Part shown: piece after piece, positions 5,166 through 54,681 of the stretch
How the letters are laid out: each line of letters opens with the position of its first letter
Position numbering within the stretch: position 1 is the stretch's first letter
From: a virus
Lineage: Duplodnaviria > Caudoviricetes
IMG/VR virus record: IMGVR_UViG_3300027917_004314
DNA: 64,000 nucleotides
Direction: 5' to 3' (one strand)
Notes under the pieces: generated by a model
Told to the model about the DNA's origin: nothing
What the model saw: only the letters and a program-made list of their open reading frames with translations
The model's database searches: none
Position numbers and translations under genes: made by a program

Positions 5166-5200
5166 AACCTATCAATTTTCTATTATTTAAAGGAGTTGGC

Positions 5201-7717: not shown

Positions 7718-8284
7718 ATGAAAACATTAAATATTCGCAAGGGAAAGCATTTTACTGGGAAGGCAAAAGTCTTTGATAAAGAAATTTATATAGATACTAA
7801 CGACGGCGCCGGCTTTCATGAAGTATTCCAGGAAATGGAAGAACTTATAGAAATGTTATCTAAAGGACATCTTGGTCCTGGTTTCGAGCGCATGTGGGAT
7901 ATAGAAGATATGAAACAAGATGTATCGTTGTCCATGCTGGAAGCAATTGTAAAGTACAATCCAGACAGTGGAAAATTGTCCACTTTCCTGTGGGCCGTAG
8001 GCAGAAATAAAGCTATTGACAACTATCGTAAAGCTGCTATTATTAGGGGGAGAATAAAGTATTTAGACTACATCGAAAAAGCGATGCCATATACCTACGA
8101 CCCCGGTATAAAAATAGAAGTTTTACAACGTTCGGAAAGTTGGGGCGATAAGTGGAAGACCATTATGCTCCGGATTTTCATTAACGGTGATCAAATATCT
8201 GAAGTGGCCAAGGATGAAGGTTTTACACCTTGGGGGCTTACTAGAGCTGTAAGAAGGAAGTTGAAAGAAGCAAGAAAAGTATGA
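7718..8284 (+). CDS. Phage sigma70-family (ECF-like) sigma factor
   Basis: Region-2-like EDMKQDVSLSMLEAIVKYNPDSGKLSTFLWAVGRNKAIDNYRK; region-4-like HTH ISEVAKDEGFTPWGLTRAVRR. Confidence 0.75.
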   Translation: MKTLNIRKGKHFTGKAKVFDKEIYIDTNDGAGFHEVFQEMEELIEMLSKGHLGPGFERMWDIEDMKQDVSLSMLEAIVKYNPDSGKLSTFLWAVGRNKAIDNYRKAAIIRGRIKYLDYIEKAMPYTYDPGIKIEVLQRSESWGDKWKTIMLRIFINGDQISEVAKDEGFTPWGLTRAVRRKLKEARKV

Positions 8285-10332
8285 CAGATGAACAAATCAA
8301 AAATTGGCTAGCTAGACATGGCGAGAAAATTGAGCCAGATTTCGTATTCGAAGAAGAAAAAGCGGAAGCAGCTCAAAGGTCTGTGGTGCATGACGGTAGC
8401 TGGCCAGATCCCAAAAGACCGGGCAATGCCGGCATATTCTCTGGGATTTCTTTTTCTAAAAATGAATTTAATCGCGTTGTGGGCGATCCTGACAATTGGG
8501 AGGCAATTCTAAGTGATGATGACCTGTACAATCAATGGATCCTCCCCAACGCGATTTTATTATTCGCCAAGACTTGGTTTGACAGAATAAAATGGAAACC
8601 ATCTATACACAAATCCGTGCCGTTTCCGTTATTTTCTGACAACGAGCGTAGTACGGCTGTCATGGCTAAACAAGAGTTGGAGCACACTCCGCATGGCAAG
8701 GCTAGGATTGCAAAGATAATGGCCAAGGCATCTTCAGCCCTAGAAGTATATTTGTCGGGCAGGTGGCTTGAAAAAACAAAATATTTAAAGAAACCGGGTG
8801 CATATATAATAGAATCGATAAGAAACGATGTAATACGTGAAATTGGCACTGATATGGGGTACAAGCTAATACCTACGTTAGCATGCCCATATTGCTTGGC
8901 GCCAGGCAAATCAGATTCTTATAAAGTACCGTTAATTAGGCATTCTTTTAAACAATATTCTTGTCCCAAATGCGTAGACGATTCTAATAACCTAGAATTG
9001 GAAATACAAAATGCTGGCAGGAAGCATAGAGGGACACTCGCCGCAGAGAAATTTGAGAAGACAAGACAGTTTAAATATTTTATTGGAGTTACATGTGTTT
9101 GTCCAAACGACAAATGTAGAGGCAAGTTTGTTCCATTAACATGTGTCAATACTAAAATATTTAATCCAGAAAGATACCGCATCAATGGTGCGCTTAAGGG
9201 TCTGTGTATTTCAAGAGATATTCAGTCGTTTAAGAGGCCCCCTAAAATCCTAGAGGATTTTCCATTGGTGTGTCCACATTGTGATACAGAGTTCACTCCG
9301 AGAAGTGCTCTTACAAGTAAATCTGGTTTCAAGAAAAAATCAGGTCATTTAACGGGATTACCTACGATATATATCTGGGTTAAAAAAGAAGCAAATACGC
9401 TAGATGAACCTATGTATGACAACCATTTAACAAGAAAAGATGGGTTGGTGGCAAAATCAGAAGATCTTAATAGTCATATTAATGCCAAACAACGTGTCAG
9501 CCTGTTGATAGGTGAGATAATTATCCGTGCGGCCAGGGTTAATAACAAGTCGTTTGACGGCCTCATGACTTTATATTTTTATAAAGCAGCAATAATATGG
9601 ATGGACAAATACTGGGAAGATGCATCTAGGTATTTCTTTGGATGGTTTGAATACGAAAGAGATCTCAGTGCTAAAGAAATGGCCCGTAATCCTGGAAAGA
9701 CCAAAAAAAAGATGACCAATATTTGTAGAGGTTCAGAGGTCACCATCCATCTATCGTTTTTTCAAGAGTGGCTAAAAGTCATTGAAGAAAATATAGAAAA
9801 GATACGCGAGGTTAACCCAGACATTAAAAAACTTAAGGATCTGAAATGGTTCTGTCGGCCGCCAAAATTTAGTGGTGGGCCAGAGTCAAACTTTATATCT
9901 GATGTCGACGACAAATTAAAAATCGCAAATAAGACAAGTATAAAGCCCGTTAGTTCGTGGGACGGCATGCCCAGACTTGCTAAAGTGCTGGCAATCTATA
10001 AAATGAAAGATGGTGTCGTTAATAGAACAAAAAATTATATATCTGATGTAAGAGGAATTGGATGGCATTCTATAGATCTAGTACCAAATACTTCTCTAAA
10101 GGTAGGAGAAAAAGTAAAAGTGAAGGCGCTAATGATGTCTGGGCATCCGACACATACCCCAATACAAAGAATCATTCGATTGAGATCCATTACTCTTAAA
10201 AATATTATAGATAGAATTTTACGTGAAGAAGCTGCGGGCGACACAGATGTATTGTTTTGGAAATCATGGAAGAACAGAGTGAAAGCAGCTAAAGAAAAAG
10301 TTGGCCATATTGTTAGGAGCTATAATGACTGA
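8281..10332 (+). CDS. Large Zn-ribbon protein of unknown function; paralog of a segment of the 2718-aa polyprotein
   Basis: CPYC, CPKC, CVCPNDKC, CPHC; possible sigma region-2-like helix AYIIESIRNDVIREI. Confidence 0.6.
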   Translation: MTDEQIKNWLARHGEKIEPDFVFEEEKAEAAQRSVVHDGSWPDPKRPGNAGIFSGISFSKNEFNRVVGDPDNWEAILSDDDLYNQWILPNAILLFAKTWFDRIKWKPSIHKSVPFPLFSDNERSTAVMAKQELEHTPHGKARIAKIMAKASSALEVYLSGRWLEKTKYLKKPGAYIIESIRNDVIREIGTDMGYKLIPTLACPYCLAPGKSDSYKVPLIRHSFKQYSCPKCVDDSNNLELEIQNAGRKHRGTLAAEKFEKTRQFKYFIGVTCVCPNDKCRGKFVPLTCVNTKIFNPERYRINGALKGLCISRDIQSFKRPPKILEDFPLVCPHCDTEFTPRSALTSKSGFKKKSGHLTGLPTIYIWVKKEANTLDEPMYDNHLTRKDGLVAKSEDLNSHINAKQRVSLLIGEIIIRAARVNNKSFDGLMTLYFYKAAIIWMDKYWEDASRYFFGWFEYERDLSAKEMARNPGKTKKKMTNICRGSEVTIHLSFFQEWLKVIEENIEKIREVNPDIKKLKDLKWFCRPPKFSGGPESNFISDVDDKLKIANKTSIKPVSSWDGMPRLAKVLAIYKMKDGVVNRTKNYISDVRGIGWHSIDLVPNTSLKVGEKVKVKALMMSGHPTHTPIQRIIRLRSITLKNIIDRILREEAAGDTDVLFWKSWKNRVKAAKEKVGHIVRSYND

Positions 10333-11656
10333 GGAACAAGTACAAAAAACAGAAGAAGAACAGGAAAAATGGCACCATGTTGCCACCGTTGAGGAACTTG
10401 GTGGTCTGAGCAGAAAAGTGCATATTGTTTACGATATAGAAGGCGTTAAAATGGCTACAGATAAAGCCATAGACTTGATAGGAAAAAACACCCAAATAAA
10501 GGGATTTAGACGTGGTAAGGCTCCAAGGCCACTGGTAGAAGTACACTGCAGGGAAGAAATTAAAAAGATGGCGTCCACAATGCTGTCCCAAGAAGGATAT
10601 CTACATGCCTGTTACGAGAATAAATTTTGCGCTATGACAGAACCAAGGGTTGAGAACTCTGAGTTCAGTATAGGTGGTACGTTTTCATGTGATATATTTT
10701 TTGAGATTAGGCCTTCTATTACCCCGACGGGTTATATTGGTCTACAACTTGAGAAGGAGTCTGTCGACAGAGAAGAGATTATTCAACGCAGTTTAGAAAA
10801 TGCCAGACAACAACATGCAAGTGAAGTAGAAGCAAGTAAGGTGGAAATTGGATCAATTGTTACATTGGATTTTAAAGTGCATAGGGACGGGCAAGAACTG
10901 TCCTCTGGTACTGACCACAGGTTTATGATAAGTGCTGGTCAAGAGTTGCCATTTGGCGAGAACCTAGTTGGTAAAGAAGTTGGGGCAAATCTGTCGGAAA
11001 CCATCGTTTTGCCGGAAGGATATAAGAACATGGGCGGGGAATCAGCTACCGTTGATATGACAATTAAAGGCATATTAAAACTAGTTCCTCCATCTGATCA
11101 AGAATTAGTAGAACGAATGGAAGCACCATCGTTTGGAGAGCTAATTGATATACTCGGAAAACATGCCGATCAGGAAATTACTGTTAAAAACCAACAATCA
11201 CTAGAAGAACAAATAATAGATAAGTTGTTAGAATTACATGAGTTTGAAGTGCCGGAGAAATGGGTGGACGACGAAGAGCGGTATATGCGTTCTCAATTAG
11301 GGTTTCAATCTGATATGGACCCGGAGATGAAACAGCATATTAGATCCATGGCAGACAGGAATGTTAGAAGAACGTTTATCTTGGATGCTATATATGATGC
11401 TGAACCAGATCTTAAATTAAAGGATGAAGAATTTGAACAACTGTTGAAACAAGAAGCTCAGGCAAGGAATGTAAGCAAGTTAATCGTAAAGAAAGAGCTT
11501 CAAGAAAAAGGCATGATGGATGCTGTTTACGGCATGTTAAGACACAAGAAAGTTATGGGCTTGATATTAAGTCAGGCCATAATTATTAATAAGGACGGAG
11601 AATTGGAGAAGGCTGCCGAAGACTCGGAGAGTATTCCTGATAATCCATTAGGGTAA
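10325..11656 (+). CDS. tig: Trigger factor
   Basis: TVEELGGLSRKVHI, ribosome-binding GFRRGKAP, FKBP-like central domain (VTLDF...FGENLVG), helical C-domain; AGGAG RBS before ATG 10325. Confidence 0.88.
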   Translation: MTEEQVQKTEEEQEKWHHVATVEELGGLSRKVHIVYDIEGVKMATDKAIDLIGKNTQIKGFRRGKAPRPLVEVHCREEIKKMASTMLSQEGYLHACYENKFCAMTEPRVENSEFSIGGTFSCDIFFEIRPSITPTGYIGLQLEKESVDREEIIQRSLENARQQHASEVEASKVEIGSIVTLDFKVHRDGQELSSGTDHRFMISAGQELPFGENLVGKEVGANLSETIVLPEGYKNMGGESATVDMTIKGILKLVPPSDQELVERMEAPSFGELIDILGKHADQEITVKNQQSLEEQIIDKLLELHEFEVPEKWVDDEERYMRSQLGFQSDMDPEMKQHIRSMADRNVRRTFILDAIYDAEPDLKLKDEEFEQLLKQEAQARNVSKLIVKKELQEKGMMDAVYGMLRHKKVMGLILSQAIIINKDGELEKAAEDSESIPDNPLG

Positions 11657-36865: not shown

Positions 36866-38719
36866 ATGGCATTTAAACAAAAAAGAAACGCTTTAGACGA
36901 CTGGAAACCAGAAAATAGTTTTGATTCTCTTAAGAGAGAATTTATGAAGGTCGATCCAGTTACTTTTGCAGAGACTTTCCTCACTCTTGATGGAAAGCCT
37001 TTTCGTATTACGGGCAACGGATGGAAATTCATAGCGGATATATATAGACATATCTCTGTGGTTTCAATGTCGAATGAAGGTAAGCCGGTCGTAATAGTGA
37101 AAGGCAGACAGGTCGGCGCGACAACCATGGCGTCTGCCATGGAATTGCACATGGTGGCAAGCGGAACATACGGAAGAAACGGACAACCTCCTGTTAGGGT
37201 AATGCATGCGTTTCCACAGTTGGAAATGATGCACGGCTTTGCCAAAGATAAGCTGGAAAAAATGATTTTAGAATCAATACAAATTCCAGATTTTGATGAC
37301 AAACATAGTCCAGGCAAAATGAAACCCTTCATTAATGCTCAGAAGGATTCGGCTAGAGACGCCACTGATGCACTGCGATATAAACAATTCAAGTATGGAA
37401 ATACTTTGTGGTGCGAATCAATAGGTAACGAGGGGACGAGAGTTATAGGTAGAACTTTTGACGTTTGTTTCTTCGACGAAGTCCAAGATATGAGCGAGGT
37501 GGCAATAGCCAAGACAATCAAGTGCCTTACTCGCGCTCAACACGGACCACAGCCTGGTGGGGTGCAAGTATTTTTTGGTACCCCAAGACAAAAGGGAACT
37601 TTATTCCATAGAATGTGGGAAGACTCAGATCAGCGCAGATATTATTTAAAATGTGCTGATTGCAAAAATTATTTCCTATTGTATACTCCTGGCTCTGACA
37701 AATGGGAAGAAGAAATTTGGTTATATGAAAATATAGTAAAATGTCCCAGCTGCGGCCATGAACAAGATAAAGTTATGGCGATTGAACATGGCAAATGGCT
37801 CCCTACGCCGGGCAAAGAAGATTCTAACTACATAGGTTTTCATTTTAATCAGCTATTTATTCCAGAATTTACTAAAGAAGTGATAGTAAAGGAAAAGCCT
37901 GAGCATAACACTAGAAACTCAGAAATGATTTTCAACAATGAAGTGCTCGGGGAGTTTCATTCTGGTGCCGGCCTTCCCATCACATTTGAAGAAATTTATC
38001 GGATGTGTAAAGATCAAGACCGTTCAGTACCAAAATTCATACCGAAGGGGGAAAGGCTTTCATACCTCGGTATGGACTGGGGAGGTAAACCAGACATAGA
38101 CAACGTTAAGAGAGGTCAATCTTTTTCTTGTGGCGTTGTGTTGACCGTAGACCATGACGAGAGATATCTCGTAGAATTCGGAGAAAAACTGAAACGATTG
38201 GATCGTGAAAGTAAGATGAGTTTTGTTGATGAAATGTTTCGCATATACGGCGTTAAGAACGCTATGGGCGATATTGGCTTTGCAGAAGACATTACTAACG
38301 ACCTCAAAATGAAGTATGGCGAGAAATATAAAAGTGTTAGGAGTTCCGGGATGGTTTCTGGTGGTGTAAAATATAATAGAGATGAATTAGAAATAGTGGT
38401 AGACAAAGATAAAATTATTGGAGAAGTCTTTGAATTGCTGAGGAGAGGCAGAATTAGATTTCCTTGGGCAAGTTATGAAAAAATTGCGTGGCTGATTAGA
38501 CATTGTTGCTCTATGGAAAGCAAAATCGTCACTAGACAGGGTCAGCCGCATCAGACATATATGAAGGGCAAAGAACAAAACGACGGACTTATGGCACTGA
38601 TTTACGCTTATTTGGCTTACAAATTTGATAAAACTCGTGGTTTTAAAGTAAATCCGAACGTGCCCAGCAGCACTATATTTCCAAAACCAGTTCTTGCATA
38701 TATACCAAAAAATATATAG
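36866..38719 (+). CDS. terL: Terminase large subunit (GpA-like with Zn fingers)
   Basis: KGRQVGATT, FFDEVQD, GTP, CADC/CPSC, NEVLGE, LGMDWG nuclease motif. Confidence 0.9.
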   Translation: MAFKQKRNALDDWKPENSFDSLKREFMKVDPVTFAETFLTLDGKPFRITGNGWKFIADIYRHISVVSMSNEGKPVVIVKGRQVGATTMASAMELHMVASGTYGRNGQPPVRVMHAFPQLEMMHGFAKDKLEKMILESIQIPDFDDKHSPGKMKPFINAQKDSARDATDALRYKQFKYGNTLWCESIGNEGTRVIGRTFDVCFFDEVQDMSEVAIAKTIKCLTRAQHGPQPGGVQVFFGTPRQKGTLFHRMWEDSDQRRYYLKCADCKNYFLLYTPGSDKWEEEIWLYENIVKCPSCGHEQDKVMAIEHGKWLPTPGKEDSNYIGFHFNQLFIPEFTKEVIVKEKPEHNTRNSEMIFNNEVLGEFHSGAGLPITFEEIYRMCKDQDRSVPKFIPKGERLSYLGMDWGGKPDIDNVKRGQSFSCGVVLTVDHDERYLVEFGEKLKRLDRESKMSFVDEMFRIYGVKNAMGDIGFAEDITNDLKMKYGEKYKSVRSSGMVSGGVKYNRDELEIVVDKDKIIGEVFELLRRGRIRFPWASYEKIAWLIRHCCSMESKIVTRQGQPHQTYMKGKEQNDGLMALIYAYLAYKFDKTRGFKVNPNVPSSTIFPKPVLAYIPKNI

Positions 38720-38728
38720 AGGTGACTA

Positions 38729-40750
38729 ATGGTAAATAGAAGGAATGATCGAAAACCCGCTAAGATTAGGGTGACGCCAAGAAGGGCTGCTGACGTTACG
38801 GAGTATAGAAAGGCCGAACTTTCAACAGATGTAGACAATGGGATTATATCAGAAGGTACGAGTTATGCCGGTAGTCGACTTAACAGGAGTAATCCTACAG
38901 TTGAGAATGCGCCGCTTGACAGTGATAGGCTAAATCGTGGTGCATGGCTTTCGTCTGGAGACAAGACGATTACCGAAACAAGGAAGAAAGTTAGTTTGAT
39001 TAATGGCGGTGCATCAAAAACTGCCGTTGGTGCTGTTGCACATAGTGATACATATTTGAAAACAGCTGCAGCAGAAGCAGCCAGAGAGTTACAAAAAACC
39101 GCTGCCTCTGTTGGATCTGTAGGTGGAACGGCAGGCACCTCTGCGGGGAGCACTGTAGAGAGACTTGCCCCAGAAGTTTATAGTCCGCTATTCACTATGG
39201 CAAATCTTAATTTGCCTCGTGATAGGATAACTATCAATGCCTGGTGCAGAAATTTTTTCTTATTGCATCCAATAGTAAGAAACGCAATTACATTACATGC
39301 AACATATCCTATCAGCAAATTAAATATAAAATGCCAGGATAAAAGGGTACTTCAATTTCACGAAGACATGATAGAGGAAATGGATTTGATGGGCGCGCTT
39401 GGAGATATTTCTCTCGAGTACTGGAAATTGGGCGAATGTTTCCCATACGCCGAGCTAGATGAAGAAAGAGGAAAATGGTCCAAGATCGTAGTTCAGAACC
39501 CGGACTATGTTCATGTGAAGAAAACTGTACTATCAGGTGATCCCATTATATCGCTAAAGCCTGATGCTGTACTCCAGCGTCTTGTAATGAGCAATAATCC
39601 TGCAGACATGCGACTTAGAAGACAGATTCCGGAGAAAATTATCTATCACGTTAGAGCGCGCCAAGATATACCGCTTGATAACTTTAATGTCTCTCATCTA
39701 AAGTTGCTTTCTAGTCCATACGATGTGAGAGGTACAAGCATTATAGTTAGTGCATTTAAAGACCTCATGCTCTATGACAAAATTCGTGAATCCAAATTTG
39801 CACAAGCGGACTCAATGATTAATCCTATTACACTCATTAAAGTGGGTGGCAACGAAGATGGCGACTATAGAGCAACGCAAGAGGATTTAGAGTTCTTCCG
39901 TGAAATTTTTGAAGAAGCCGAGTATGATAAGAATTTCAAGCTTATTACGCATGCCGGCGTAAAAGTAGAGCGTGTTGGTTATACTGGACAAGTATTAGAA
40001 ATTTCTGGAGATATGGAACTTATTATCAAAAACATTTATACTGGTTTGATGGTTCCTCCGGCAGTCGTTGACACTGAAAGTGCTGTTTACGCATCTGCTT
40101 CTATCGGCTTGGAAGTGTTAAGGCAAAGGTATTTCAATTTTAGAAATATGATGGCCAAGTGGCTTGTAAATAAGATTTTTGCTCCTATTAGTGAAATTCA
40201 AGGTTTTTACGAGTATAAAAACAAAGAGAAAAGATTAATAGTTCCAGAAGTAGAGTGGAATCATATGAATCTCTATGATCTACAAGACTATATTTCAAAT
40301 ATTACTGGCATGGTAAGCTCGAAACAGGCCTCTGTTCAAACTTTGTACCGCAGCATGGGGCTTAACTATGAGGATGAGAAAATAAAGATGCGACAAGAAT
40401 CCATTGACGAAGCCATACGCAGAAGGGAAGAGATGGCTCTTGGAACTATGACACTTACTGAATTGCGTTCGCTGGATCCAGAAAAGCCAATTATGGAAGC
40501 CATTGATTCTAGGGAACGAGAAGCTGAGCCTGCTGTTCCACCAGAAGCTGGTATGCCGGCGGGCGTTATGCCGCCGGGAGCCGAGATGGGAGCTGGTCCG
40601 TTGGGAGGTCTGCCAGAACTTGCTCCTCCGCCAGGAGGAGCGTTGGAAACGCCCCCAGGTGCGGGAGCCCCTCCAGGTGCTGGAGTTACACCGCCACTAG
40701 GGCCTGGAACCCCTGGCGGAGCAGGTGGGCCAGGCGGGCTAGGTGTATAG
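38729..40750 (+). CDS. Portal protein
   Basis: Directly follows terL; HPIVRNAITLHATYP, GECFP, PYDVRGTSII, clip/stem-like region; Pro/Gly-rich tail. Confidence 0.75.
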   Translation: MVNRRNDRKPAKIRVTPRRAADVTEYRKAELSTDVDNGIISEGTSYAGSRLNRSNPTVENAPLDSDRLNRGAWLSSGDKTITETRKKVSLINGGASKTAVGAVAHSDTYLKTAAAEAARELQKTAASVGSVGGTAGTSAGSTVERLAPEVYSPLFTMANLNLPRDRITINAWCRNFFLLHPIVRNAITLHATYPISKLNIKCQDKRVLQFHEDMIEEMDLMGALGDISLEYWKLGECFPYAELDEERGKWSKIVVQNPDYVHVKKTVLSGDPIISLKPDAVLQRLVMSNNPADMRLRRQIPEKIIYHVRARQDIPLDNFNVSHLKLLSSPYDVRGTSIIVSAFKDLMLYDKIRESKFAQADSMINPITLIKVGGNEDGDYRATQEDLEFFREIFEEAEYDKNFKLITHAGVKVERVGYTGQVLEISGDMELIIKNIYTGLMVPPAVVDTESAVYASASIGLEVLRQRYFNFRNMMAKWLVNKIFAPISEIQGFYEYKNKEKRLIVPEVEWNHMNLYDLQDYISNITGMVSSKQASVQTLYRSMGLNYEDEKIKMRQESIDEAIRRREEMALGTMTLTELRSLDPEKPIMEAIDSREREAEPAVPPEAGMPAGVMPPGAEMGAGPLGGLPELAPPPGGALETPPGAGAPPGAGVTPPLGPGTPGGAGGPGGLGV

Positions 40751-40800: not shown

Positions 40801-41070
40801 ATGAAAAAGGAAGATGTAAATTTCAAAAAAGATTGTCAGAAATATCATGACTCAGTGTGTACGCTACTGAAACAAGGAAAAGTAAAAGAATCTAATGAGT
40901 TAATTGATAAAATAAGCAATTATCTTCGCCAATGGGAAGATTTTCAAAGGTCAGTATATATAAAAGTTAATGCTCTTAAATCTCTATATGCTGCTGTTGT
41001 TTTTGAACAAAGAAAAGCCGTTGAGAAAATTATAAAAGCTGGAGGCGACAGGAATAATGACCAAGAGTAA
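40801..41070 (+). CDS. Small hypothetical protein
   Basis: ORF after the portal gene. Confidence 0.55.
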   Translation: MKKEDVNFKKDCQKYHDSVCTLLKQGKVKESNELIDKISNYLRQWEDFQRSVYIKVNALKSLYAAVVFEQRKAVEKIIKAGGDRNNDQE

Positions 41071-42853
41071 AAATCCAGATGTACCTTCTGTAAAAGAGGC
41101 TGTTATGCTAGCAGACCTATTTGACAGTGTCGGGGAATATGAGACTGCCGCATTGTTGGATGAGTTTGTCAAACACGCCATGTCTGATGATATCATGAAA
41201 CAAGCGGGGTTTTGGTCTAACATTTTGAAACGCCTCAAGGGTAGATCTAAGAGAATTTTCTTCTCGGTGTATAGAGAACTTCATGATAAAGCAAAAGATG
41301 CACAAGAAGAACTTGATGCCGAAGTCAAAAGAATCAATGAGGATTTTAAGAGTGTTAAAAAACATCTTAAATTATATGAGTTAGTGGATTGGCGTTATGA
41401 AGCGCAAAAACTGGGCCTGGCAAACGTAGAGGAGATCATGTCTGGCTACGACCAAGCCTACGCTAAACTAATAGGGTTCTTTGACGTTCATAAAAAACCT
41501 GATGAAGAAATTTCCGAGGAAGAAAAACCAGAAGAAAAATTATCACCTATTGAAAAGTTACCTGGAAAACCTACAGGAAGACGCATACCTGGTGCAGAGG
41601 AGGGGTGGGTTAGGTTGGATCCACGTACTGCATCAATTCAGAAGAATGAGGAGACGGGTGACTTAAGAATCGATTTTGACAAGTTTCAAGACTATTTAGG
41701 AATCCATTTGGGTATGCCAGCGAAAAATAAAGTTAGATTTGTAGAACATCGCGGCAAATTGGGCAGACTTGAAGATTTAAAAGAGTTTATGGGAACTGAT
41801 ATCTGGAACATTATAAAAACTGATGATAAGTGGGTGTATTTATCTAAGACAGAACCAATCGTACCAGAGGAAGTGGCTATCGAGCCTGAAGAAGAAGAGG
41901 AAGTTGAAAGCCCATTTGATATAGTACCAACACTAGAACCGGAAAAAGAAGTGCCGGAAAAAAAGGTCACAAAAGAAAAACCGAGCCCGCCGCCGTCACC
42001 GCCGAAACCAGAAGAAGTTGCAGAAGAACGAATTGTCGAAGAAGAAGAAGAAGAGGTTCCTGAAGTGTCTGCATCATCTAAGATGGAACGGTTTATCGAA
42101 AAATATTATGATAGCAACATAACTGTAGATGGATTGTGGAAAGATATATATGGTATGATGCGCGAGGGCGTTTCGATTGATGAGGCGATAGAATCTGTCG
42201 AGGACATTTATGATTGGTATTCAGGCTTATCAGACTTGGATCGTGCCAGCATAGCGTTTGTGGCAAATAAATTGGTAAACAAGGGCGTCAGATTGTCTGA
42301 TGCACTTAGAAGACTAAAAATTAGTAAAGAGAAGGCTGAGACTTCCGAAGAGCCGGTTACAGAAGAAGAACTGGCGCCTACGAAGCCAGAAATTCCTGCC
42401 AAGCCGCCCGGTAAATCTTTTATGGAATGGTACAACTCTTTGGCACCTGAAGACCAACAGAAGGTAACCGAAGAGATTAATAGGCTGGTTGATGAAGGTC
42501 TGACTACAGAGCAAGCAAAAGAAAAGGTCCAGTCGATGGTGGCCATGCCAACCACGGAGCCAACTGCCGTGAGACCTAAAGTATGGGTAGAAAGGCCTGG
42601 CATGAGATGGCACAGTGCAGCAGCAAAGAGGGGCATGATAGGCTATGTACGAATACTTGAATCAAATGTCAAAGAGACCGACAGAATAGAGACCGACCCA
42701 GAAGTTATAGAATTTTTAAATTATCAGTCGCAGGGCAAACGTGTGGCAGCGTTGCCAGCCAACTGGCGAGAAATATTGACAGGATATCGCCAACAGCAAT
42801 CCCCAAGAACAGCACGAATGAGAAGAATAATGGAATTGCATACAACTTCATGA
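41057..42853 (+). CDS. Acidic hypothetical head-module protein
   Basis: N-terminal helical motif VMLADLFDSVGEYETAALLDEF; Glu/Pro-rich linkers; GGAGG RBS. Confidence 0.7.
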   Translation: MTKSKNPDVPSVKEAVMLADLFDSVGEYETAALLDEFVKHAMSDDIMKQAGFWSNILKRLKGRSKRIFFSVYRELHDKAKDAQEELDAEVKRINEDFKSVKKHLKLYELVDWRYEAQKLGLANVEEIMSGYDQAYAKLIGFFDVHKKPDEEISEEEKPEEKLSPIEKLPGKPTGRRIPGAEEGWVRLDPRTASIQKNEETGDLRIDFDKFQDYLGIHLGMPAKNKVRFVEHRGKLGRLEDLKEFMGTDIWNIIKTDDKWVYLSKTEPIVPEEVAIEPEEEEEVESPFDIVPTLEPEKEVPEKKVTKEKPSPPPSPPKPEEVAEERIVEEEEEEVPEVSASSKMERFIEKYYDSNITVDGLWKDIYGMMREGVSIDEAIESVEDIYDWYSGLSDLDRASIAFVANKLVNKGVRLSDALRRLKISKEKAETSEEPVTEEELAPTKPEIPAKPPGKSFMEWYNSLAPEDQQKVTEEINRLVDEGLTTEQAKEKVQSMVAMPTTEPTAVRPKVWVERPGMRWHSAAAKRGMIGYVRILESNVKETDRIETDPEVIEFLNYQSQGKRVAALPANWREILTGYRQQQSPRTARMRRIMELHTTS

Positions 42854-45800: not shown

Positions 45801-48800
45801 GTCAAAATAGTTGCCAAAAATGTAATGAGTATTAATCGCATAGGTAAAGCTTATGGCAGTCGTATGGCTAAATCATTGGCACAAAAATTTGGTCCTAAGA
45901 AAAGATTTATAGTTATTAAGTTTGAGCCTGTAGATAACCTTAATGCTGCAGATGACGATGACGACAATAATGAAGAGAAAATGTCTGAAGTACTAATAGA
46001 CAAGGATAAAAAACTTACAAGAGGCCAAATTAAAACGCACTATTCGAAACCAGCGATTCGTAAAAAAATAATGTCGCGCATCAAAGACAACCCTGTGATA
46101 GTATATATCGGTACTGGTACCAACGAAAAGATCTTGAAACGCAATCATGATGGTAAGGAAATTATAATAACAAATGATGACCCGCAAAAAGACGAAGACT
46201 CTAACAATTATTTCTATTGGGTTAAAAGGAGAGTGTTGTCGTTTCACCAAGTGTTTGGCACTAAAACCAATTTGGGCTTCGTTGATTTAGACATACATGG
46301 AGACTTTCCTCTATCTAAAGCTAAAAAATATGCGAACGAAATCAGCAAGGCCATTAAAAATAAGTATAATGTGGGTACTACCATTTTTCAAAGCGGTGGT
46401 AGTGGTTTACATGTAGAGTTTAAACTCAGCAGCGAAATGTCTATAGACAAGCTTCGCGGCGAGCTTAAGAAAATGTTGGATGCCATTAACGAAGATTGGG
46501 GTGATGTGACAACTGGTGTTGTAAAAGGTAGTGGGATGAGATCTGATGTGTCTACCCTACATAATAAGGGTAGCATTAGAGTGCCGGGTTCTTTTGGTGA
46601 AAGTCACGGAAACGTGAAAAAATCAGTAGGTTCTGAACAAGATACTGCTGAGAACAATTATAACAATGGCGGCTTCGGACAATTATATACGCAAGAAATA
46701 ACCGAGCCGTTTCCAGATCCGCTAAAAGAGGTAGCCCCAATGCAGGGTGAGGGGCCAGTTGATAGTTATATAGGATATAACACCGTAGAGGACGGAAAAT
46801 TTGCCTCAGCTAAGAAAAAAGTACTTATGTTGGTGGCACCAAAAGAATTCTATGAGCCTGAGTATTTTATCCCTCGCAGAATTTTTGCGGAAAAATATGG
46901 TTTTGATGTGTCAGTAGTTTCTAGTGGCCATAGCGCTGTTGGTGCTCAAGGAACTGAAATTGCAGTAGTTCCAATATCTGAAATAGATGTGGCCGACTTT
47001 GATTCTTTCTTTGTGGTTGGCGGCAAAGGGATGGTGGAGTTTTCCAAAGACAAAGATGCACAAAAATTGCTGAAAACTTTTGTTCGTAAGAAAAAACCTG
47101 TAGCCATGATTTGCCATGGTCCACTTCTTGCTGTTGAAACTGGTATTATAAAGGGCAGACAAGTTACTGGGTGGCCAGATATTGTGGGCAAAGTACGCAG
47201 AGCTAAGGGTACCTGGACTGGGATGCCGGTAGAAAGAGACGGGCTGCTGTTTACTGCAATTGGCCCAGAAGACGCAGAAAACTTATCTATAGTCTTATCA
47301 GAATTTCTCAAAGGAGAAAAAACACTCGTTCCTGTGAAAGAGAAATTTCTTGATTGGAAAGAGGCCTCGCAGGTAATAAATAGTATTTGGAAATTTGCTG
47401 CTGGCCTAAGTGACGAAGAAGAGCTGGCCAGATTGATGAGAGAACAGCAAGAGGAAATAGAAGAAGAGGAAGAAGGGGAAGAAGAGAAAGAGGTCATGAT
47501 TCCTGAGGATAAGGAAGCGCTCATAGAAATGCAGCATCGAGAGGAGTTGCTCAGGAGACAACAGCAAATAGAAAGATCACGCGCTGAAAGGGAACGTCGT
47601 GAAGAACAGGAAATGGAAAGGCGTCGAGAATTGCCCGAAGAATATGAGGAAGAGGAACCCGAGCTAGAAAAACCCAGAGCAGTAAAGTTTAAGGATATCG
47701 TACAAATTGAGAAAGAAGAGGAAGAACCGCTGGCCGAAGAAGAGGGCCTGGAACCATCGGAAGAATTTAGCCGAATGTTATCCTCTGTAAAAGAAGAATT
47801 GTCTAGTATACTAGAAGATATTGGGGATTTTGGTGAAGACCCCAATATGGCAGAACCAGAAGAAGATGAAGAAGAAGATTACGAGTCAACAATGGAGAAG
47901 GCGCCAGAAACTATTTTTGGAATTAAACTAAAAAGTCCAACCGACAAATCTGGCCAAGTACTTGACCGATGGTTTGAGAAAAACGAAATTGTCATGCCAG
48001 AAATGTCCGAGGGGGCCAGGAAGCTATTTACAATAAAAAACATGAAAGATGGTGCTTCTTTAACGAAACTGTTTAGCGATCCTTTGGCATGGGATATCCT
48101 GCACGAAGAACCCCACCTGTTGCAAAATTGGATTTTGCCAGCTCTGATCGTGGGTATAGGACAAAGATGGTTCAACAACAATGGTAGTAGACCACAACTT
48201 GGTACTAAAAAATTTAAAAATGTTGGTAGAACGCCTTTTGGCATGTTTGATGAAGATGACCTAGCCCTTCTCAAAAAAGGTGCAACAATAGAGGAGCTGC
48301 CCAGTGCCAGGAAGTATATACGCATGATAAATCAGTTGGTGACCAAATATGCTAACTATTATTTCTCGTATGGGTATAGGAGAAGTAAAAGAAATCCACA
48401 AGGTGCTTTACCTATAGGTGGTTATATATATAAGGCCTTAGGAAGGGCTATGACTAAAGAAATTGCTGAAGTTAAAGGTTTCAAGGAAATAAGGTTTCCT
48501 GTTTGTGCTGTGTGTAAGGCAAAACAAAAGAACGAGAAAATGATTCTTCGAAGCATGGTTAAAGTCGCTGACAAACCAGCCAGATGGGAGTGTGAGACTT
48601 GCAAAAGAGAGCATGAAGCAAATAGTTTCTTAATTGATGAATTAGAACAAAGACTTAGGACAATAGAAGACAGTGCCGGTGGGCTAAAAACTAGAATAGA
48701 ACAAGATAAGGTTGCTGTAAAAGATTTGGAAGACGAAGAGGCAATCGAACGACTTACCAATAAAATTGAAGATCGGACCCAAAGGTTAACCTCGTTTATT

Positions 48801-51017
48801 ATAGAGTCTGATTCAATCAAGAAAAAACGTGACGAGTTAAATAATACGCAGAAAATATTAAGCGGACAATTAGCAGTTCCATATTGGCATACTTGGTGCC
48901 CGAACACAACTTGTCCCGGCCGCAAAGTGCCTCTCACTTCAATAAATTGGGACGCAGATGTGTGGAAAAGTGATGCCGAGGGTGCTTTAGCGGCTAGGTT
49001 ATATGAAAGATATGGTATTAAAAGACCTGGCATGATGGAGGCCGTTGATGAGCCAACTGCGAAGCCAATAAAAAGAAAAATCTCTTCGCAGCACATTCCG
49101 CCAGAATGGCTACTAGATGTAGAGTTTATATGTCCACATGATGGTATTAAATTTACGCTAAGGGATAGTAAATATAAGGGGCACAGAAATCTAGGCGGGT
49201 TTTTGTGGGAGCCATATCGAAGGTTGGAGTGGGCTACTATGCATGAAGCTGCCCCCAAAGAAGTAGAAGTGGCGATTGCTATGGCCGGCGCCGAAGAGAA
49301 AATGGATGCTGAGTTGTCAAAAGTACTTTTCACACATTTGTCCTTAATTGGCAGAACAGTTTTCTCGCGTGAAAAAAGGAAAAAAGATCAACAATTTGTA
49401 GAGTGGTTAACAGGTCAGCTCAAGTTACATAAGTACAACCTGGAAAAAGTTAAGCAAATTCCTATCTATAGCTCCAAGCAGAGAGAGAAAGTGTTGTATG
49501 ATATAATAAAAGATTCTTCTAATCTAGATCCTTTGTCTTTCGTGGCTTGGCTTACGGAGACTGCCATAGCTGGCAAGTTTGTTCAAGATAGAGAGAAAGA
49601 TATTGGCCAGGAAAACTTTGTACTAAAGACAACGAGAAATCAGCGTAGAGACGAGATATATATACCTATTTTACAAAATTGGGTTGACAAAATGCTTTCT
49701 GAAGAAAACGGATTTGAGAATTATAGAATAGAGGACATGTTAACCAACCATCTTGAAGATGGACTCTACGGTGATGGACCAGGAACTTTCTTTGTTGCAA
49801 AGATTGAAGATGGTGTGTTGCCACATAGGGCAACCAAGAAGCACGAAGGAGTGTTTGGCTTTAGATGCAATCTTATGCTTTCTGTGAAGTTTCCTGCAAA
49901 ACCAAAATATAGTGTGCCAATACATAAAGGCATTGAGGGATTTGAAGAAGAATATTTAGATGAGTTAGAACAAAAAGAAAGAATACGAGCAAGTAGGACT
50001 GCAGAGTCAGGTTTGTATCCTCGTATGCTGAGAGTTATTGGCGTGTGGCAGCTGTCACCAGGACAAGTTGAATCTGTTCTTAAACAAGCCAATGGCGAGG
50101 CGATGCTGAAAGGCGAAGCATGCATAGCGAAGGGTCCAGGTGGTACCGGCCTGCATACGTTTGCTTTAAACAACCAAGATAAAAATATAGTCGGCGATAT
50201 GGTTGGGCACGATTTTTATGTTGCTACACTAGATAAAGACGAGACATCTTTGTCTGTAGGAGATTATGTTCTGGTACAAGCTTTACTTATGCCAGGAGAT
50301 TACTGGTGGGCGCCAATTGCTATGGTCCAAAATCTAAGAAAAGAGAGCGACACAGCTAGAAATATCTTTGGTAGACTTGGTGCTCTAATATCTGACGAAG
50401 TGTCACCAGAAGAAGATAGAAGACTGCTGCAAGAATTTGTGCAGGATGTTAAGGAATATGGTGATGACCCGAAAGAAATGGAAATGATCGTTGGAGATTT
50501 AATTGATAGGTTTGAGGCAGCAAGAAAAAAGAAAAGGTCGTCGTTTATTCTTAGCGTTAGAGAAGCAAAAGATCCTCTATCAAAATATAAACAAAAACGA
50601 GAGTTTGATGAGACTCCTGAACCCGAAGGCGAAGTCTCTAAAGAGAATAAACATCGATTTGTGATTCAAAGACACGTAGCTGAAAAAGTTGGTGAACATT
50701 GGGATCTACGACTAGAAAACAATGAAGGTGCCTTATCGTCTTGGTCTATACCAAAACATAAGTTTCCTAAAGATAAAGAGAAACTGTTGGCCGTCAAAAC
50801 GGAAGACCATCCAATATCTTATATGAAATTTAAAGGAGAGATTCCGGAGGGCTACGGTGCTGGTAAAGTAGAAATTCATGATAGCGGCACATTTGAGGAA
50901 GTAGAATGGAACGACTCGAAAATAGTTTTTAAGCTTAAAGGAGAAAAAGAGAAAGGGACATATAAGTTATTTAGAACCGATGGGAAAAATTGGATGATCA
51001 TGGAACATTACGGATAG
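42861..51017 (+). CDS. 2718-aa polyprotein: Zn finger, ATP-dependent DNA ligase, lysozyme/SLT-like domain, ASCH, AEP (LigD-Pol-like) polymerase, DJ-1/PfpI, paralog of ORF 8281, LigD 3'-phosphoesterase
   Basis: EEKLDG/VEGELV/YDVL/EGIVLK/RFRDDK; ESND..GDAGNSFGRTQV; IRSGKRRMTIR; FVDLD/SGGSGLHV/IRVPGS; FYEPE/AMICHGP; REFDETPEP/FVIQRH..HWDLRLE/EDHPISY. Confidence 0.88.
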   Translation: MATVEYKCSWCKNPISVEEDENANTDIKASGVCRECELKQLKETTIPMTKRKVFRFRESGVNELAEKLENRLSTMIARVRELESENVADDSLAPVALMRLTEIKDPDELLKTYDRDDIIIEEKLDGWKVQAIKKDGEVKIYSRRGEEKTENFPDIISALGNLPDGTLVEGELVYWHNGKQDVGKVTSLAGSKPETSLEKAKELPGTIKIHLYDVLWHKGKNVSKESFSKRRQTLQSCVKTSDRAQLTKQYPFSDWQKAMNAAVKSGGEGIVLKIKEKGYQYKPKGQQEPKPKNVMYKYKGGVGKSESDDYVVYDYEITEKGKLKAFFGQYYGGKLYHISEISNFSKENEETIKNKLKKGNFVIEIGFQERQPGGLRHQKFERFRDDKKPKDATMHEFHVENIDEFKMAEKKASFLLSKRATYADEWLKILEQAVMQLYPSGLPQISGVDFPAIYYLVSRLESNDRNDVIGDAGNSFGRTQVHGPYFMRYLAQDPRIKHLTGLSSQDLKQMADTWMHTKRNLSGLWQQVPVDQDTARAYMADKKLVIHRKEGTTIRRSPTSGPGIIKLRGDKFVGYIINLDKLRHMGLTITDGVLSKLHQICNTFITWGVANSAIAKLFIAQKNPVAHAKFHRSFNSRNIGRDPVLQSVIDSISQKDFANKVKIVTSDVARYGYDTTAPGAFNIYQLIFIANASGAGRVRDFLRNRRAFAAGNLHYIQSSRFKRAMRWIQRDPKMPANVQYIARLLLTDLPPQGGMAGFVSRKFSNIDFPLSKKVYASEAEEEFEKEETTDPAKPWFIIELEDEFFTKLRQLIGEDATVLIIVRKKLSERVGKELEEYELIPLYRQDIIKYITENVEDIKSKLLNPDYNPFVEYLLRNWDIKLIAPKSVAMPTELGPTDRDDEFFEEETKPEAVPWRPKLGNQLISKRADYVKPGTLYFPGQYADAIRSGKRRMTIRPNDVPVQIDEVIRCITYSGGVICDVKIVAKNVMSINRIGKAYGSRMAKSLAQKFGPKKRFIVIKFEPVDNLNAADDDDDNNEEKMSEVLIDKDKKLTRGQIKTHYSKPAIRKKIMSRIKDNPVIVYIGTGTNEKILKRNHDGKEIIITNDDPQKDEDSNNYFYWVKRRVLSFHQVFGTKTNLGFVDLDIHGDFPLSKAKKYANEISKAIKNKYNVGTTIFQSGGSGLHVEFKLSSEMSIDKLRGELKKMLDAINEDWGDVTTGVVKGSGMRSDVSTLHNKGSIRVPGSFGESHGNVKKSVGSEQDTAENNYNNGGFGQLYTQEITEPFPDPLKEVAPMQGEGPVDSYIGYNTVEDGKFASAKKKVLMLVAPKEFYEPEYFIPRRIFAEKYGFDVSVVSSGHSAVGAQGTEIAVVPISEIDVADFDSFFVVGGKGMVEFSKDKDAQKLLKTFVRKKKPVAMICHGPLLAVETGIIKGRQVTGWPDIVGKVRRAKGTWTGMPVERDGLLFTAIGPEDAENLSIVLSEFLKGEKTLVPVKEKFLDWKEASQVINSIWKFAAGLSDEEELARLMREQQEEIEEEEEGEEEKEVMIPEDKEALIEMQHREELLRRQQQIERSRAERERREEQEMERRRELPEEYEEEEPELEKPRAVKFKDIVQIEKEEEEPLAEEEGLEPSEEFSRMLSSVKEELSSILEDIGDFGEDPNMAEPEEDEEEDYESTMEKAPETIFGIKLKSPTDKSGQVLDRWFEKNEIVMPEMSEGARKLFTIKNMKDGASLTKLFSDPLAWDILHEEPHLLQNWILPALIVGIGQRWFNNNGSRPQLGTKKFKNVGRTPFGMFDEDDLALLKKGATIEELPSARKYIRMINQLVTKYANYYFSYGYRRSKRNPQGALPIGGYIYKALGRAMTKEIAEVKGFKEIRFPVCAVCKAKQKNEKMILRSMVKVADKPARWECETCKREHEANSFLIDELEQRLRTIEDSAGGLKTRIEQDKVAVKDLEDEEAIERLTNKIEDRTQRLTSFIIESDSIKKKRDELNNTQKILSGQLAVPYWHTWCPNTTCPGRKVPLTSINWDADVWKSDAEGALAARLYERYGIKRPGMMEAVDEPTAKPIKRKISSQHIPPEWLLDVEFICPHDGIKFTLRDSKYKGHRNLGGFLWEPYRRLEWATMHEAAPKEVEVAIAMAGAEEKMDAELSKVLFTHLSLIGRTVFSREKRKKDQQFVEWLTGQLKLHKYNLEKVKQIPIYSSKQREKVLYDIIKDSSNLDPLSFVAWLTETAIAGKFVQDREKDIGQENFVLKTTRNQRRDEIYIPILQNWVDKMLSEENGFENYRIEDMLTNHLEDGLYGDGPGTFFVAKIEDGVLPHRATKKHEGVFGFRCNLMLSVKFPAKPKYSVPIHKGIEGFEEEYLDELEQKERIRASRTAESGLYPRMLRVIGVWQLSPGQVESVLKQANGEAMLKGEACIAKGPGGTGLHTFALNNQDKNIVGDMVGHDFYVATLDKDETSLSVGDYVLVQALLMPGDYWWAPIAMVQNLRKESDTARNIFGRLGALISDEVSPEEDRRLLQEFVQDVKEYGDDPKEMEMIVGDLIDRFEAARKKKRSSFILSVREAKDPLSKYKQKREFDETPEPEGEVSKENKHRFVIQRHVAEKVGEHWDLRLENNEGALSSWSIPKHKFPKDKEKLLAVKTEDHPISYMKFKGEIPEGYGAGKVEIHDSGTFEEVEWNDSKIVFKLKGEKEKGTYKLFRTDGKNWMIMEHYG

Positions 51018-52328: not shown

Positions 52329-52685
52329 ATGGGAAACAATTTTAGGTTATCCAACAGAATAGAAAAAACAGTGCAGACGCCAGCTCAGCGTACAGCTGAG
52401 TCATTGTTCAAAATTATTCAATTTATGTTTTATAGAGTGCCCGATAAGAATAAAGCGAAATTTCTGTCAAGAGTTAGAGGAAAAATAGTTAAATTAAATC
52501 CGGGTGCTTTGGGAACAAAACCGTTGCCGCCAACAGCAGCAATAGGTCAGGCAATCGGGCTGGCTAAAAATCTATTATATGGCCTTAACCCTAATTTTAT
52601 TCAAGAAGTTTTATCGGAGTTGGTAAAACTGTTATCTACAACTCCGCAACCAATAAAGCCTCTACCGCCGAGTGCTGGGGCATAA
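52329..52685 (+). CDS. Hypothetical protein
   Basis: Abutting ORF. Confidence 0.6.
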   Translation: MGNNFRLSNRIEKTVQTPAQRTAESLFKIIQFMFYRVPDKNKAKFLSRVRGKIVKLNPGALGTKPLPPTAAIGQAIGLAKNLLYGLNPNFIQEVLSELVKLLSTTPQPIKPLPPSAGA

Positions 52686-52689
52686 ATAT

Positions 52690-54681
52690 ATGTTTTATAT
52701 CAGTAAAAGAGCTGCCTGGATGCGAAGCATATGGATTAATCCAGACGATGGTTCCACGATACAAGTAGATGGCAAGACCCATGACGATGTGTTTTTTGAA
52801 CATATCGATCAGTTTGGAGATGCTGTACCTGAAGACATCAAAGAAATAATTAAGAGAAGGGAAGAAAAACCAGAGCACTCAGAAAAAGCTTACGAGATTT
52901 TGGATGGTCTAAAAGAGAGTTGGCCCAGAATTACAATATTTGGCAGTGAAGTTGGCCTAGACATGCCAGATAAATCTAATCTATTGTTGCACTTTGCACA
53001 ACAAACACTTATGAAAAGTGGGCTTAGATATGGATCCATGACAATCAACTTTGGTGTCGGCGGCTTTATCGAAGATGTTTCGTATGATGATTTTATACGA
53101 GCTGACAGGTGGTCTGATATTTTAAAGCCATATAGGTCGTTTATCACTGCGTTTGCATTGTCAAAGCGTGCCCAGGAACCGATAATTCCTACTCCGCATA
53201 TTGTGATCGAACCATACGAGCCTGCAATCGCAAAGGCACTTACTAGAATACCAAACCATTTAAAAATGAACGTCACAAAAGTAGTAGTTCACAGTGGTGG
53301 CGGTTCTGGTCATATGGGGCATGTCGAAATGGGCCCTGGGAAAGATCCAAGAGAGATACATATCTTTAAAGATAGGATCCGAGAAAAGGTGCGTCAAATG
53401 TTCGGTACTATACAACCTACAGCACAGCAGCTAGAACAAGCAACAGAACGCGCCTTGATTGAAACCATCATACACGAAACGGGACATATAGGACCGACAA
53501 GAACCCAAGAACAGATTTTACAAGGTCCGTTCTTTGGAGAACCAGAGGCCGAAGCACTCGTCAGACAGCAGCTGCCGACAATTGCATCGTTTGAAGATGC
53601 ATTGGTGAAGGCATCCCTTGATTTGGAAGAGATTAGAGAGAAGCTATTACCAAATGCTCCTATTGGAGAGCCTAACTTGCACTTTGTGGCTCAATCCATG
53701 AACCAAAAAAAATATTATCTTGTCAAGAGTGGAGTCCGTCTACTCACAGGTGGCGATATAAAACCCGCCGCAATCGAAATTAAAGAGGCAGAACAATTTA
53801 ATAATATCGCTTCTCGAAACATCAAAGTTTCTAAAATTATTGGAGTTATTGCGGCAGAAGTAGGAGTTCATCCATATAACGATTTGAATTTTGTGGTTGC
53901 TTTGGCAAAATGGCAAGATTGCAACGGTTTAGAGCCTACTGGCAAATTAGATGCTGGTACTTTATCCAAGCTTGGTAAAAATCATAGTCACTTAGAGACC
54001 CCTAAAAATTTTGGTGTTGTGGTTCCTCAACACCTGTATCGTGGCGCAATAATTGAGAATATGAAACAACTAGAAGCGTTGCGTGATAGGTTTGGTGTAC
54101 AAAGGGTTGTTTCCCTGCACAACCACCCTGATATAACTAGGATGTGTCACATCGCTGGTTTAGAACATGTTGTAGCACCTTTAGAAACAGGATCGCCAAG
54201 TGACTTTGGTAGAAAAATTCTTGGAAAATCCATTTCTAGCTTTTTAAAAGAAAAACCAACATATATTCATTGTTTTTATGGTCAAGACCGCACAGGAGGC
54301 GTTGTAGCGCGCTTCAGGACGGAAACTGGATGGCCATGTGAAGCAGCCTATGCAGAAGCAAAAGCTTATGGTTTTAAAGACATGTTTGCCGATCTTATCG
54401 ATTGGTTTTCTGAGCCATGCGGCAAGCCACCAGTTGATACCGATAAGATAAGGAAATTATTGAAGAATAAATCTCCTTATAAGAATCCAGAAACTTCACA
54501 ACCTCTAGAACAGTCGTTATTGGAACCCCACCTAAATCCAGTTCCTAATGATATGCCATTTGGCAATCCATATCAAGATGCTAGTGAACATGTCTATGTT
54601 ACGTGGGCTGATACTATTAACAGCGTGGCGCCAACAGGGATTTTAAGCATTCCTGTGCCATCAGGGAGTACGGGCATATGA
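52690..54681 (+). CDS. Multidomain protein: zincin-like HExxH domain, peptidoglycan-binding domain, protein tyrosine/dual-specificity phosphatase
   Basis: IIHETGH; WQDCNGLEPTGKLDAGTLSKL; NFGVV..HLYRGA and IHCFYGQDRTG P-loop. Confidence 0.8.
   Translation: MFYISKRAAWMRSIWINPDDGSTIQVDGKTHDDVFFEHIDQFGDAVPEDIKEIIKRREEKPEHSEKAYEILDGLKESWPRITIFGSEVGLDMPDKSNLLLHFAQQTLMKSGLRYGSMTINFGVGGFIEDVSYDDFIRADRWSDILKPYRSFITAFALSKRAQEPIIPTPHIVIEPYEPAIAKALTRIPNHLKMNVTKVVVHSGGGSGHMGHVEMGPGKDPREIHIFKDRIREKVRQMFGTIQPTAQQLEQATERALIETIIHETGHIGPTRTQEQILQGPFFGEPEAEALVRQQLPTIASFEDALVKASLDLEEIREKLLPNAPIGEPNLHFVAQSMNQKKYYLVKSGVRLLTGGDIKPAAIEIKEAEQFNNIASRNIKVSKIIGVIAAEVGVHPYNDLNFVVALAKWQDCNGLEPTGKLDAGTLSKLGKNHSHLETPKNFGVVVPQHLYRGAIIENMKQLEALRDRFGVQRVVSLHNHPDITRMCHIAGLEHVVAPLETGSPSDFGRKILGKSISSFLKEKPTYIHCFYGQDRTGGVVARFRTETGWPCEAAYAEAKAYGFKDMFADLIDWFSEPCGKPPVDTDKIRKLLKNKSPYKNPETSQPLEQSLLEPHLNPVPNDMPFGNPYQDASEHVYVTWADTINSVAPTGILSIPVPSGSTGI

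Follow-up and report, generated by a model that had tools for sequence, protein, structure and literature searches.

A zinc-ribbon module kept in two copies by DnaE-type huge phages, one beside a sigma factor gene and one within a large head-module protein

Phage T4 gp55, which works with gp33 and the sliding clamp, is a minimal late sigma factor, a small single-domain protein consisting of a region-2-like domain only and lacking zinc ribbons; we know of no packaged copy of it. Proteins that are packaged in the head, injected and control early transcription include the N4 virion RNA polymerase, the virion RNA polymerases of phiKZ and AR9, and T4 Alt (PMC7598289, PMC5512222). Polyvalent proteins are known from phages and conjugative elements and, in phages, characteristically join functionally unrelated domains; they have been proposed to enter along with the DNA, countering defence and giving transcription or replication an early start (Iyer et al. 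2017, PMC5512222), and group 3 jumbo phages are described as having neither polymerase subunits nor sigma factors (PMC7824862). Here we analyse a 64,000-nucleotide stretch (the window) of the IMG/VR record IMGVR_UViG_3300027917_004314, in which a zinc-ribbon module occurs twice: as a free protein of 683 amino acids (aa) encoded next to a sigma factor gene (P0001, positions 8281–10332), defined by its open reading frame (ORF), homologue search and AlphaFold2 model, and as a segment of a 2718-aa multidomain protein of the head module (P0002, 42861–51017), defined by its ORF and Pfam domains. The window represents bases 32001–96000 of the 161-kb record (CheckV completeness 40%), and its long ORFs, like all features given below by window position, lie on the plus strand. 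P0002 is present also on a contig of 460,921 bp; the source phage is uncultured and its genome roughly 460 kb.

Residues ~1700–2561 of P0002 (47958–50543) are a full-length paralogue of P0001. BLASTP of the two proteins gave three collinear high-scoring segment pairs (HSPs), joining P0001 residues 63–212 to P0002 residues 1734–1892 (E = 4e-8), 274–343 to 2013–2103 (E = 4e-7) and 581–646 to 2438–2506 (E = 2e-5). When the P0001 family (alignment A1, 31 sequences) was compared with the family of the P0002 segment (alignment A5, 20 sequences) using hhalign, the profiles matched with a probability of 100% and an E-value of 6.7e-57 over 605 aligned columns, P0001 residues 38–658 falling on P0002 residues ~1700–2520. 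The similarity is thus far beyond what chance would give, and it spans almost all of the 683-aa protein; phmmer envelopes in the 20 homologues likewise mark out the segment. An initial annotation of this DNA had proposed the paralogy from seven pairs of matching motifs and placed the segment at 48085–50340. Both proposals are confirmed, as all seven pairs lie within the three HSPs, the range (P0002 residues 1742–2494) lies inside the homologous block, and the pairwise alignment that it suggested as a check is significant (E-values from 4e-8 to 2e-5). The P0002 copy differs from P0001 by a coiled-coil insert of ~80 aa between its two zinc ribbons, along with other inserts.

An exhaustive search of 1.84 billion representative sequences with P0001 retrieved 68 relatives at E ≤ 0.001, of which 44 reach E ≤ 1e-30 and all are metagenomic; they include several giant proteins and proteins of ~870–900 aa matched over the same regions. 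A search with the P0002 segment retrieved 14 giant proteins. Using a profile of the N-terminal domain, we found exactly two copies in record G000 and exactly two in each of five others (G001, 301.7 kb; G002, 441.9 kb and 100% complete; G003, 340.4 kb; G004; G007), every one of the five having one free ORF of 549–693 aa and one copy within an ORF of 1383–3476 aa. Since two copies occur in every such record, the sequences place the duplication before the divergence of these DnaE-type huge phages, with both copies retained since. We take the module to be specific to this clade. The earlier suggestion of a possibly novel family holds up alongside the paralogy: in Pfam, PHROGs and NCBIfam nothing was found for P0001 or the P0002 segment except weak zinc-finger noise. 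PDB sequence searches with profiles A1 and A2 returned only zinc-finger noise, aspartate transcarbamoylase regulatory chains and an ATP synthase b chain, GenBank phages searched by tblastn with P0001 and with the segment gave no match, and the family is described neither in the polyvalent-protein paper (PMC5512222) nor in the jumbo-phage comparative paper (PMC7824862). New here is a cargo module of a polyvalent head protein that has a conserved free paralogue in the same genome. A 212-aa protein carrying the C-terminal block only (P0067) was set aside as a possible chimera, coming from a 1.4-kb contig with 1.8x coverage.

The AlphaFold2 model of P0001 has a predicted local distance difference test score (pLDDT) of 85 and a predicted template-modelling score (pTM) of 0.47, hence the domains are confident but the packing between them is not. 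Together with the alignment, the model gives the order of the module as a helical head domain, two zinc ribbons, a helical bundle, a beta-barrel and C-terminal helices. In P0001 an acidic N-terminal tail (residues 1–37 in the model) precedes the head domain (38–196; 8392–8868), whose nearest known fold is that of sigma regions 1.2–2.4. The zinc ribbons follow (197–345; 8869–9315), then a linker with the motif SGFK..SG.LTGLP, the helical bundle (396–515) and beta-barrel (516–620; jointly 9466–10140), and lastly the motif GHPTHxPIQRIIRLR with the C-terminal helices (621–683; 10141–10332; alignment A1), in which P627 and R635 are conserved in the P0002 family too (joint alignment). The corresponding parts of P0002 are a helical domain of pI 9.9 that we tentatively liken to sigma region 2 (1725–1880; 48033–48500), a region with zinc ribbon 1, the coiled-coil insert (1926–2005) and zinc ribbon 2 (1881–2105; 48501–49175; from invariant A5 columns and the joint alignment), and a conserved C-terminal block, LSVGDYVLVQALLMPG..PI..LR, identified by the third HSP and the joint alignment (2438–2506; 50172–50378).

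Zinc ribbons had been noted in both copies on first inspection, and their paired Cys ligands are indeed conserved in A1, A5 and the joint alignment. The P0001 ligands, C202/C205/C228/C231 and C274/C279/C331/C334, are invariant or nearly so in the 31 orthologues; in P0002, ribbon 1 has C1882/C1885/C1911/C1914 and ribbon 2 has C2013/C2018/C2091 plus H2010 or D2094. The module has two conserved four-ligand sites, predicted to bind zinc. The joint alignment of 51 sequences contains 41 columns with a conservation of 80% or more in both families; these comprise Trp, Cys, Pro, Gly, Phe, Tyr and other hydrophobic residues with one Arg, include no acidic or His set in common, and exclude the His of the GHPTH motif, which is not common to both families. 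Lacking shared residues of catalytic type, the module reads as a non-catalytic binding or scaffold unit. P0001 has a pI of 9.4 and a net charge of +31, every domain having a pI of at least 9, and we consider it likely that the module, stabilised by zinc and without catalytic function, serves to bind nucleic acid or polymerase. In G007 the free-copy orthologue (549 aa; locus L044, G007:C1:69000-78000, minus strand 3684–5330) is without the counterpart of P0001 residues ~268–359, namely the second zinc ribbon and the SGFK linker.

What the module might bind is suggested by the fold of its head domain. Some 100 residues align in sequence order with sigma regions 1.2–2.4, at a root-mean-square deviation of 3.0–3.9 Å. 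In BFVD, phage sigma factors stand at ranks 2 and 7, and the top match of an ESM-Atlas shape search is a cluster carrying Sigma70_r2. The initial annotation had compared the YIxxxI..EI helix with sigma region 2.4; the structural half of that comparison is supported to the extent that regions 1.2–2.4 are the nearest known fold in both paralogues, and the sequence half is not, as neither sequence nor profile searches gave a significant match. The sole local alignment in the comparison with a broader sigma alignment placed KKPGAYIIESIRNDVIREIGTD on sigma regions 2.3–2.4, which is the position proposed at the outset, with a non-significant P value of 0.23. A truly sigma-2-like head domain seems to us a real possibility somewhat short of an even chance. 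On this basis we tentatively favour, again below even probability, a sigma-region-2-like factor that would act on DNA and RNA polymerase and of which one copy would be injected; our reasons are the fold ranking in both paralogues, the sigma-gene coupling described below, the presence of zinc ribbons and T4 gp55 as a precedent.

The gene upstream of P0001 encodes a 188-aa sigma factor of extracytoplasmic function (ECF) type (7718–8284; Pfam Sigma70_r2, E = 6.7e-10; NCBIfam sigma70-ECF, E = 1.1e-7 over residues 36–180). Its stop and the P0001 start overlap by 4 nucleotides (ATGA), and a P0001 orthologue follows the sigma gene in 12 of 14 informative related loci, in agreement with the coupling originally proposed. 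The order exonuclease, sigma, P0001, trigger factor, DnaE is found in 11 IMG/VR loci, and the short contig L004 keeps the sigma end, P0001 and trigger factor. As the entire region is syntenic across the clade, adjacency alone says little. L005 and G007 have no sigma gene at this place, the P0001 orthologue coming directly after the exonuclease gene, and no Sigma70_r2 match was found within 116 kb in G007. The trigger-factor homologue (10325–11656; NCBIfam tig, E = 3.8e-58, above cut-off; Pfam Trigger_N and Trigger_C) has an AGGAG ribosome-binding site, and its start overlaps the P0001 end by 8 nucleotides; it is translationally coupled to P0001 and holds the same position in 14 of 14 related loci.

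ECF sigma genes are typically followed by a co-transcribed regulator, and the 4-nucleotide overlap and conserved adjacency would also suit a free copy that is an anti-sigma factor or co-factor of the upstream sigma. By analogy, the packaged copy would then target a host sigma factor and shut off or redirect host transcription on entry. We find this quite improbable: P0001 residues 38–196 contain no Cys and cannot hold the ZAS motif HxxxCxxC, the fold matches are to sigma rather than anti-sigma chains, L005 and G007 retain the protein without a sigma neighbour, and the second paralogue has no sigma gene nearby. The 161-kb record holds one sigma only, and G001–G003 each have a second, more canonical one elsewhere. 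In G002 (L041:516-1124) and G003 (L042:424-1068) this second sigma, of 202–214 aa with Sigma70_r2 and r4, lies far from the first. No RNA polymerase beta or beta' Pfam domains were found in four related records, in which sigma genes are present; these phages therefore probably use the host polymerase.

The second copy sits among domains of other kinds. By Pfam, P0002 contains an ATP-dependent ligase (103–286), ASCH, a weak LigD PrimPol match, DJ-1/PfpI (1319–1476), the module, and a LigD 3'-phosphoesterase (2603–2705; 50667–50975; LigD_N, E = 1.7e-25). Residues 1500–1700 (47358–47960) are Glu-rich by composition, with a net charge of −42. This stretch of ~200 residues lies directly N-terminal to the basic head domain of the module, and the free-standing module of G006 likewise has an acidic stretch at its beginning. 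Such a stretch might keep the basic domain masked or neutralised until its release. A motif scan found FxLSKRA-type motifs at P0002 residues 414, 768, 922 and 2562 (44100, 45162, 45624 and 50544), in the forms FLLSKRA, FPLSKKV, QLISKRA and FILSVREA, respectively, and none in P0001. The last (50544–50567) marks the C-terminal edge of the module; in P0007 and P0008 such a motif stands exactly at the module end, and in G002 the gene is split at the same point (FILSVREA/KDPLSKYK in P0002, M-TDPLAKYK in G002). The coincidence of motif and split supports a module boundary here, and is compatible with a putative proteolytic release.

The same set of domains recurs in relatives, fused or split. G002 has the P0002 order in three overlapping genes (ligase; DJ-1 and module; phosphoesterase and LigT), and in the more distant G006 and L023 the module is a separate gene of 872–900 aa, downstream of terminase and portal and flanked by a ligase protein and a phosphoesterase–Topoisom_I fusion. 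The core of DJ-1, module and phosphoesterase recurs in homologues. Placement of a P0002-type gene in the head module near terminase and portal is seen also in L023 and L038, and no MuF domain was found in this setting of P0002. In that more distant clade, the LigD 3'-phosphoesterase fused to a topoisomerase IB of eukaryote/poxvirus type (L039:12274-14982 and L023:12621-13955; Topoisom_I, E = 6.6e-28) is a head-module protein encoded just downstream of the module gene. The large ORF upstream of the ligase gene (L038:10-2754 and L039:184-3336) has LAGLIDADG and Hint domains, suggesting that a head gene, probably portal, contains an intein.

Several results weigh against a sigma-like identity. 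First, sequence comparison gave it no support. Neither Foldseek, which had been put forward as a check of sigma or RNA polymerase identity, nor any profile method returned a significant match: PF04542 was not found in the 31 family members (Pfam, E ≤ 10), Sigma70_r4 was not among the 25 commonest of the 55 Pfam families matched by these members at that threshold, a PDB profile search returned no sigma chain, and hhalign of the head domain gave probabilities of 0.7% with the neighbouring sigma family and 0.26% with the broader sigma alignment. Second, the sigma matches all have one fold and thus count as a single piece of evidence, and their fold scores are at the level that the tool reports for unrelated helical models; these marginal scores, with the negative sequence tests, weaken the case. 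Lastly, the gene surroundings of both copies have to do with the processing of DNA or RNA ends. The free copy lies downstream of SbcCD and a PD-(D/E)xK exonuclease and upstream of DnaE, dispensing with its sigma neighbour in L005 and G007, and the order ligase, module, phosphoesterase is retained around the other copy whether fused (P0002) or split (G002, G006, L023).

The remaining structural searches bear on neither side. None of the fold-search matches covers the C-terminal helices. ESM Atlas searches by feature and with its own model were uninformative because that model has a pLDDT of 0.36, and nothing could be read from a shape search with the full model either. The fold-search lists contain no Ku, anti-sigma or polymerase folds, an absence that we do not take as evidence. 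Prediction of a complex between E. coli beta' residues 200–350 and the head-domain alignment scored 0.00 ('no answer'), neither for nor against an interaction.

The level of the fold scores would also suit a protein of structure or packaging (such as a scaffold holding the other cargo domains, or a protein of the head interior or of ejection) with no specific role towards nucleic acid or polymerase, its resemblance to sigma region 2 being a chance similarity of helical bundles; the mostly core-type nature of the conserved residues points the same way. Such a role is unlikely in our view: it hardly accounts for a free paralogue conserved at a distance from the head genes, in an operon for replication and transcription, and a pair of conserved zinc ribbons together with strong positive charge is met more often in proteins that bind nucleic acid.

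The end-processing surroundings bring forward a stronger alternative, in which the module binds or bridges nucleic-acid ends as an accessory of a heal-and-seal set (ATP-dependent ligase, LigD 3'-phosphoesterase, LigT-type 2H phosphoesterase, PrimPol and type IB topoisomerase), in a role like that of Ku for LigD. Protection, repair or circularisation of the incoming genome or of damaged RNA would fall to the injected copy, and the free copy would serve the recombination–replication module of SbcCD, exonuclease and DnaE. Besides the retained gene order, the recurrent core and the position of the free copy, the basic charge, the zinc ribbons and the want of catalytic-type residues common to both families are consistent with this. 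Ku (PF02735) was found neither on P0001 or P0002 nor in the four records G000–G003, one of them a complete genome, and this absence counts in favour of the alternative. On the other side, polyvalent proteins join unrelated domains (PMC5512222), so that fusion and gene order are weak evidence; the order at the free copy is conserved clade-wide and carries little specific information; the module itself has no Pfam Ku signature; and the sigma-like fold ranking and the sigma-gene coupling are left unexplained. We regard an end-binding role as possible, at rather less than an even chance. It and the sigma-like role fit the data about equally well, and we commit, tentatively, to the latter.

We postulate that the head domain, if built like sigma regions 1.2–2.4, would work as they do, engaging single-stranded or melting DNA and possibly also the clamp of RNA polymerase; further contacts to nucleic acid or polymerase would come from the zinc ribbons. 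The free, strongly basic copy would be made alongside the co-translated ECF-type sigma and act on transcription of phage DNA. The second copy would be synthesised in the head-module polyprotein behind the acidic stretch of charge −42, separated at the FxLSKRA-type boundaries and packaged; once ejected with the DNA, it would work on the incoming genome ahead of all phage gene expression. Both virion delivery and the division of labour between immediate-early and late stages, as the initial annotation had imagined them, are inferred from gene position only. In its fullest form, the head-module copy would be a capsid-packaged, injected specificity factor of sigma type that reprogrammes host polymerase at time zero, the free paralogue doing the same job later with the phage ECF-type sigma; this we hold to be rather doubtful.

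The wider gene order is as follows. The first 16 kb of the window encode an FtsK-like protein, SbcD, SbcC, a dNMP kinase and the PD-(D/E)xK exonuclease, then the sigma factor, P0001, the trigger-factor homologue and a DnaE-type DNA polymerase. In the DnaE region of L007–L009, L012, L013 and L017, the best match starts 3–4.7 kb past the trigger-factor gene and is partial, a hint that the polymerase gene carries an insertion, whether intein or intron. Farther downstream in the window, the head module comprises terminase (36866–38719), portal (38729–40750), an unannotated 598-aa ORF (41057–42853), P0002 and, farther on, a protease-domain protein. The relatives of the terminase reach only ~25% identity, in Bacillus siphophages, and no cultured relative can therefore serve as reference. 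A 669-aa head-module protein (52672–54681) shows weak matches to dual-specificity/tyrosine phosphatases (PTP-SAK, Tc-R-P) and a weak peptidoglycan-binding repeat.

DnaE-type huge phages appear to encode no RNA polymerase, and the question touched here is how their transcription is started and scheduled. Our analysis defines a conserved, unannotated family with two copies in every sufficiently sampled member of the clade, one beside a sigma gene and the other inside presumed injected cargo. A sigma-like role, if true, would add a third route of transcription takeover from the first second, beside injected polymerases and modifying enzymes. If the injected copy were itself such a factor, it would be without precedent as an injected sigma-like factor, would represent a new branch of the sigma-2 fold that bears zinc ribbons, and would reprogramme the host polymerase in a phage that carries none. 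An end-binding role, if true, would supply a Ku-independent partner for LigD-type enzymes. In either case, the family offers expression, structural and binding work a clearly delimited target.

Set against known systems, the head domain of both paralogues comes nearest in fold to sigma-70 regions 1.2–2.4 (pro-sigmaK 8vjl_B, sigmaS 6omf_F, sigma70 7n4e_F), its last helix (GGYIxxSIxNxxxxEI) standing at the place of regions 2.3–2.4. The module differs from sigma-70 in having no detectable sequence similarity or region-4 signature, in ~70 extra residues between the first and second long helices, and in the two zinc ribbons, helical bundle and beta-barrel that follow the head, in P0001 as a strongly basic protein of 683 aa. 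As in ECF sigma/anti-sigma pairs, the P0001 gene is immediately downstream of, and translationally coupled to, an ECF-type sigma gene; unlike anti-sigma factors, P0001 is much larger and has no ZAS motif or membrane segment, two lineages keep the module without an adjacent sigma gene, and its paralogue is part of a head protein. Ku, with LigD in bacterial end joining and in the mycobacteriophages Corndog and Omega, is a non-catalytic DNA-end binder that works with ligase, polymerase and phosphoesterase; our module sits between such domains in phages without Ku and has no Ku sequence signature. The injected proteins of N4, phiKZ, AR9 and T4 (Alt) are polymerases or an ADP-ribosyltransferase, and no injected specificity factor of sigma type was among the cases that we found. 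The polyvalent-protein paper makes no mention of sigma, LigD, DJ-1 or ZnR (PMC5512222); like the proteins it describes, P0002 is very large, brings many unrelated domains together in a single chain and has its gene close to portal in the head module.

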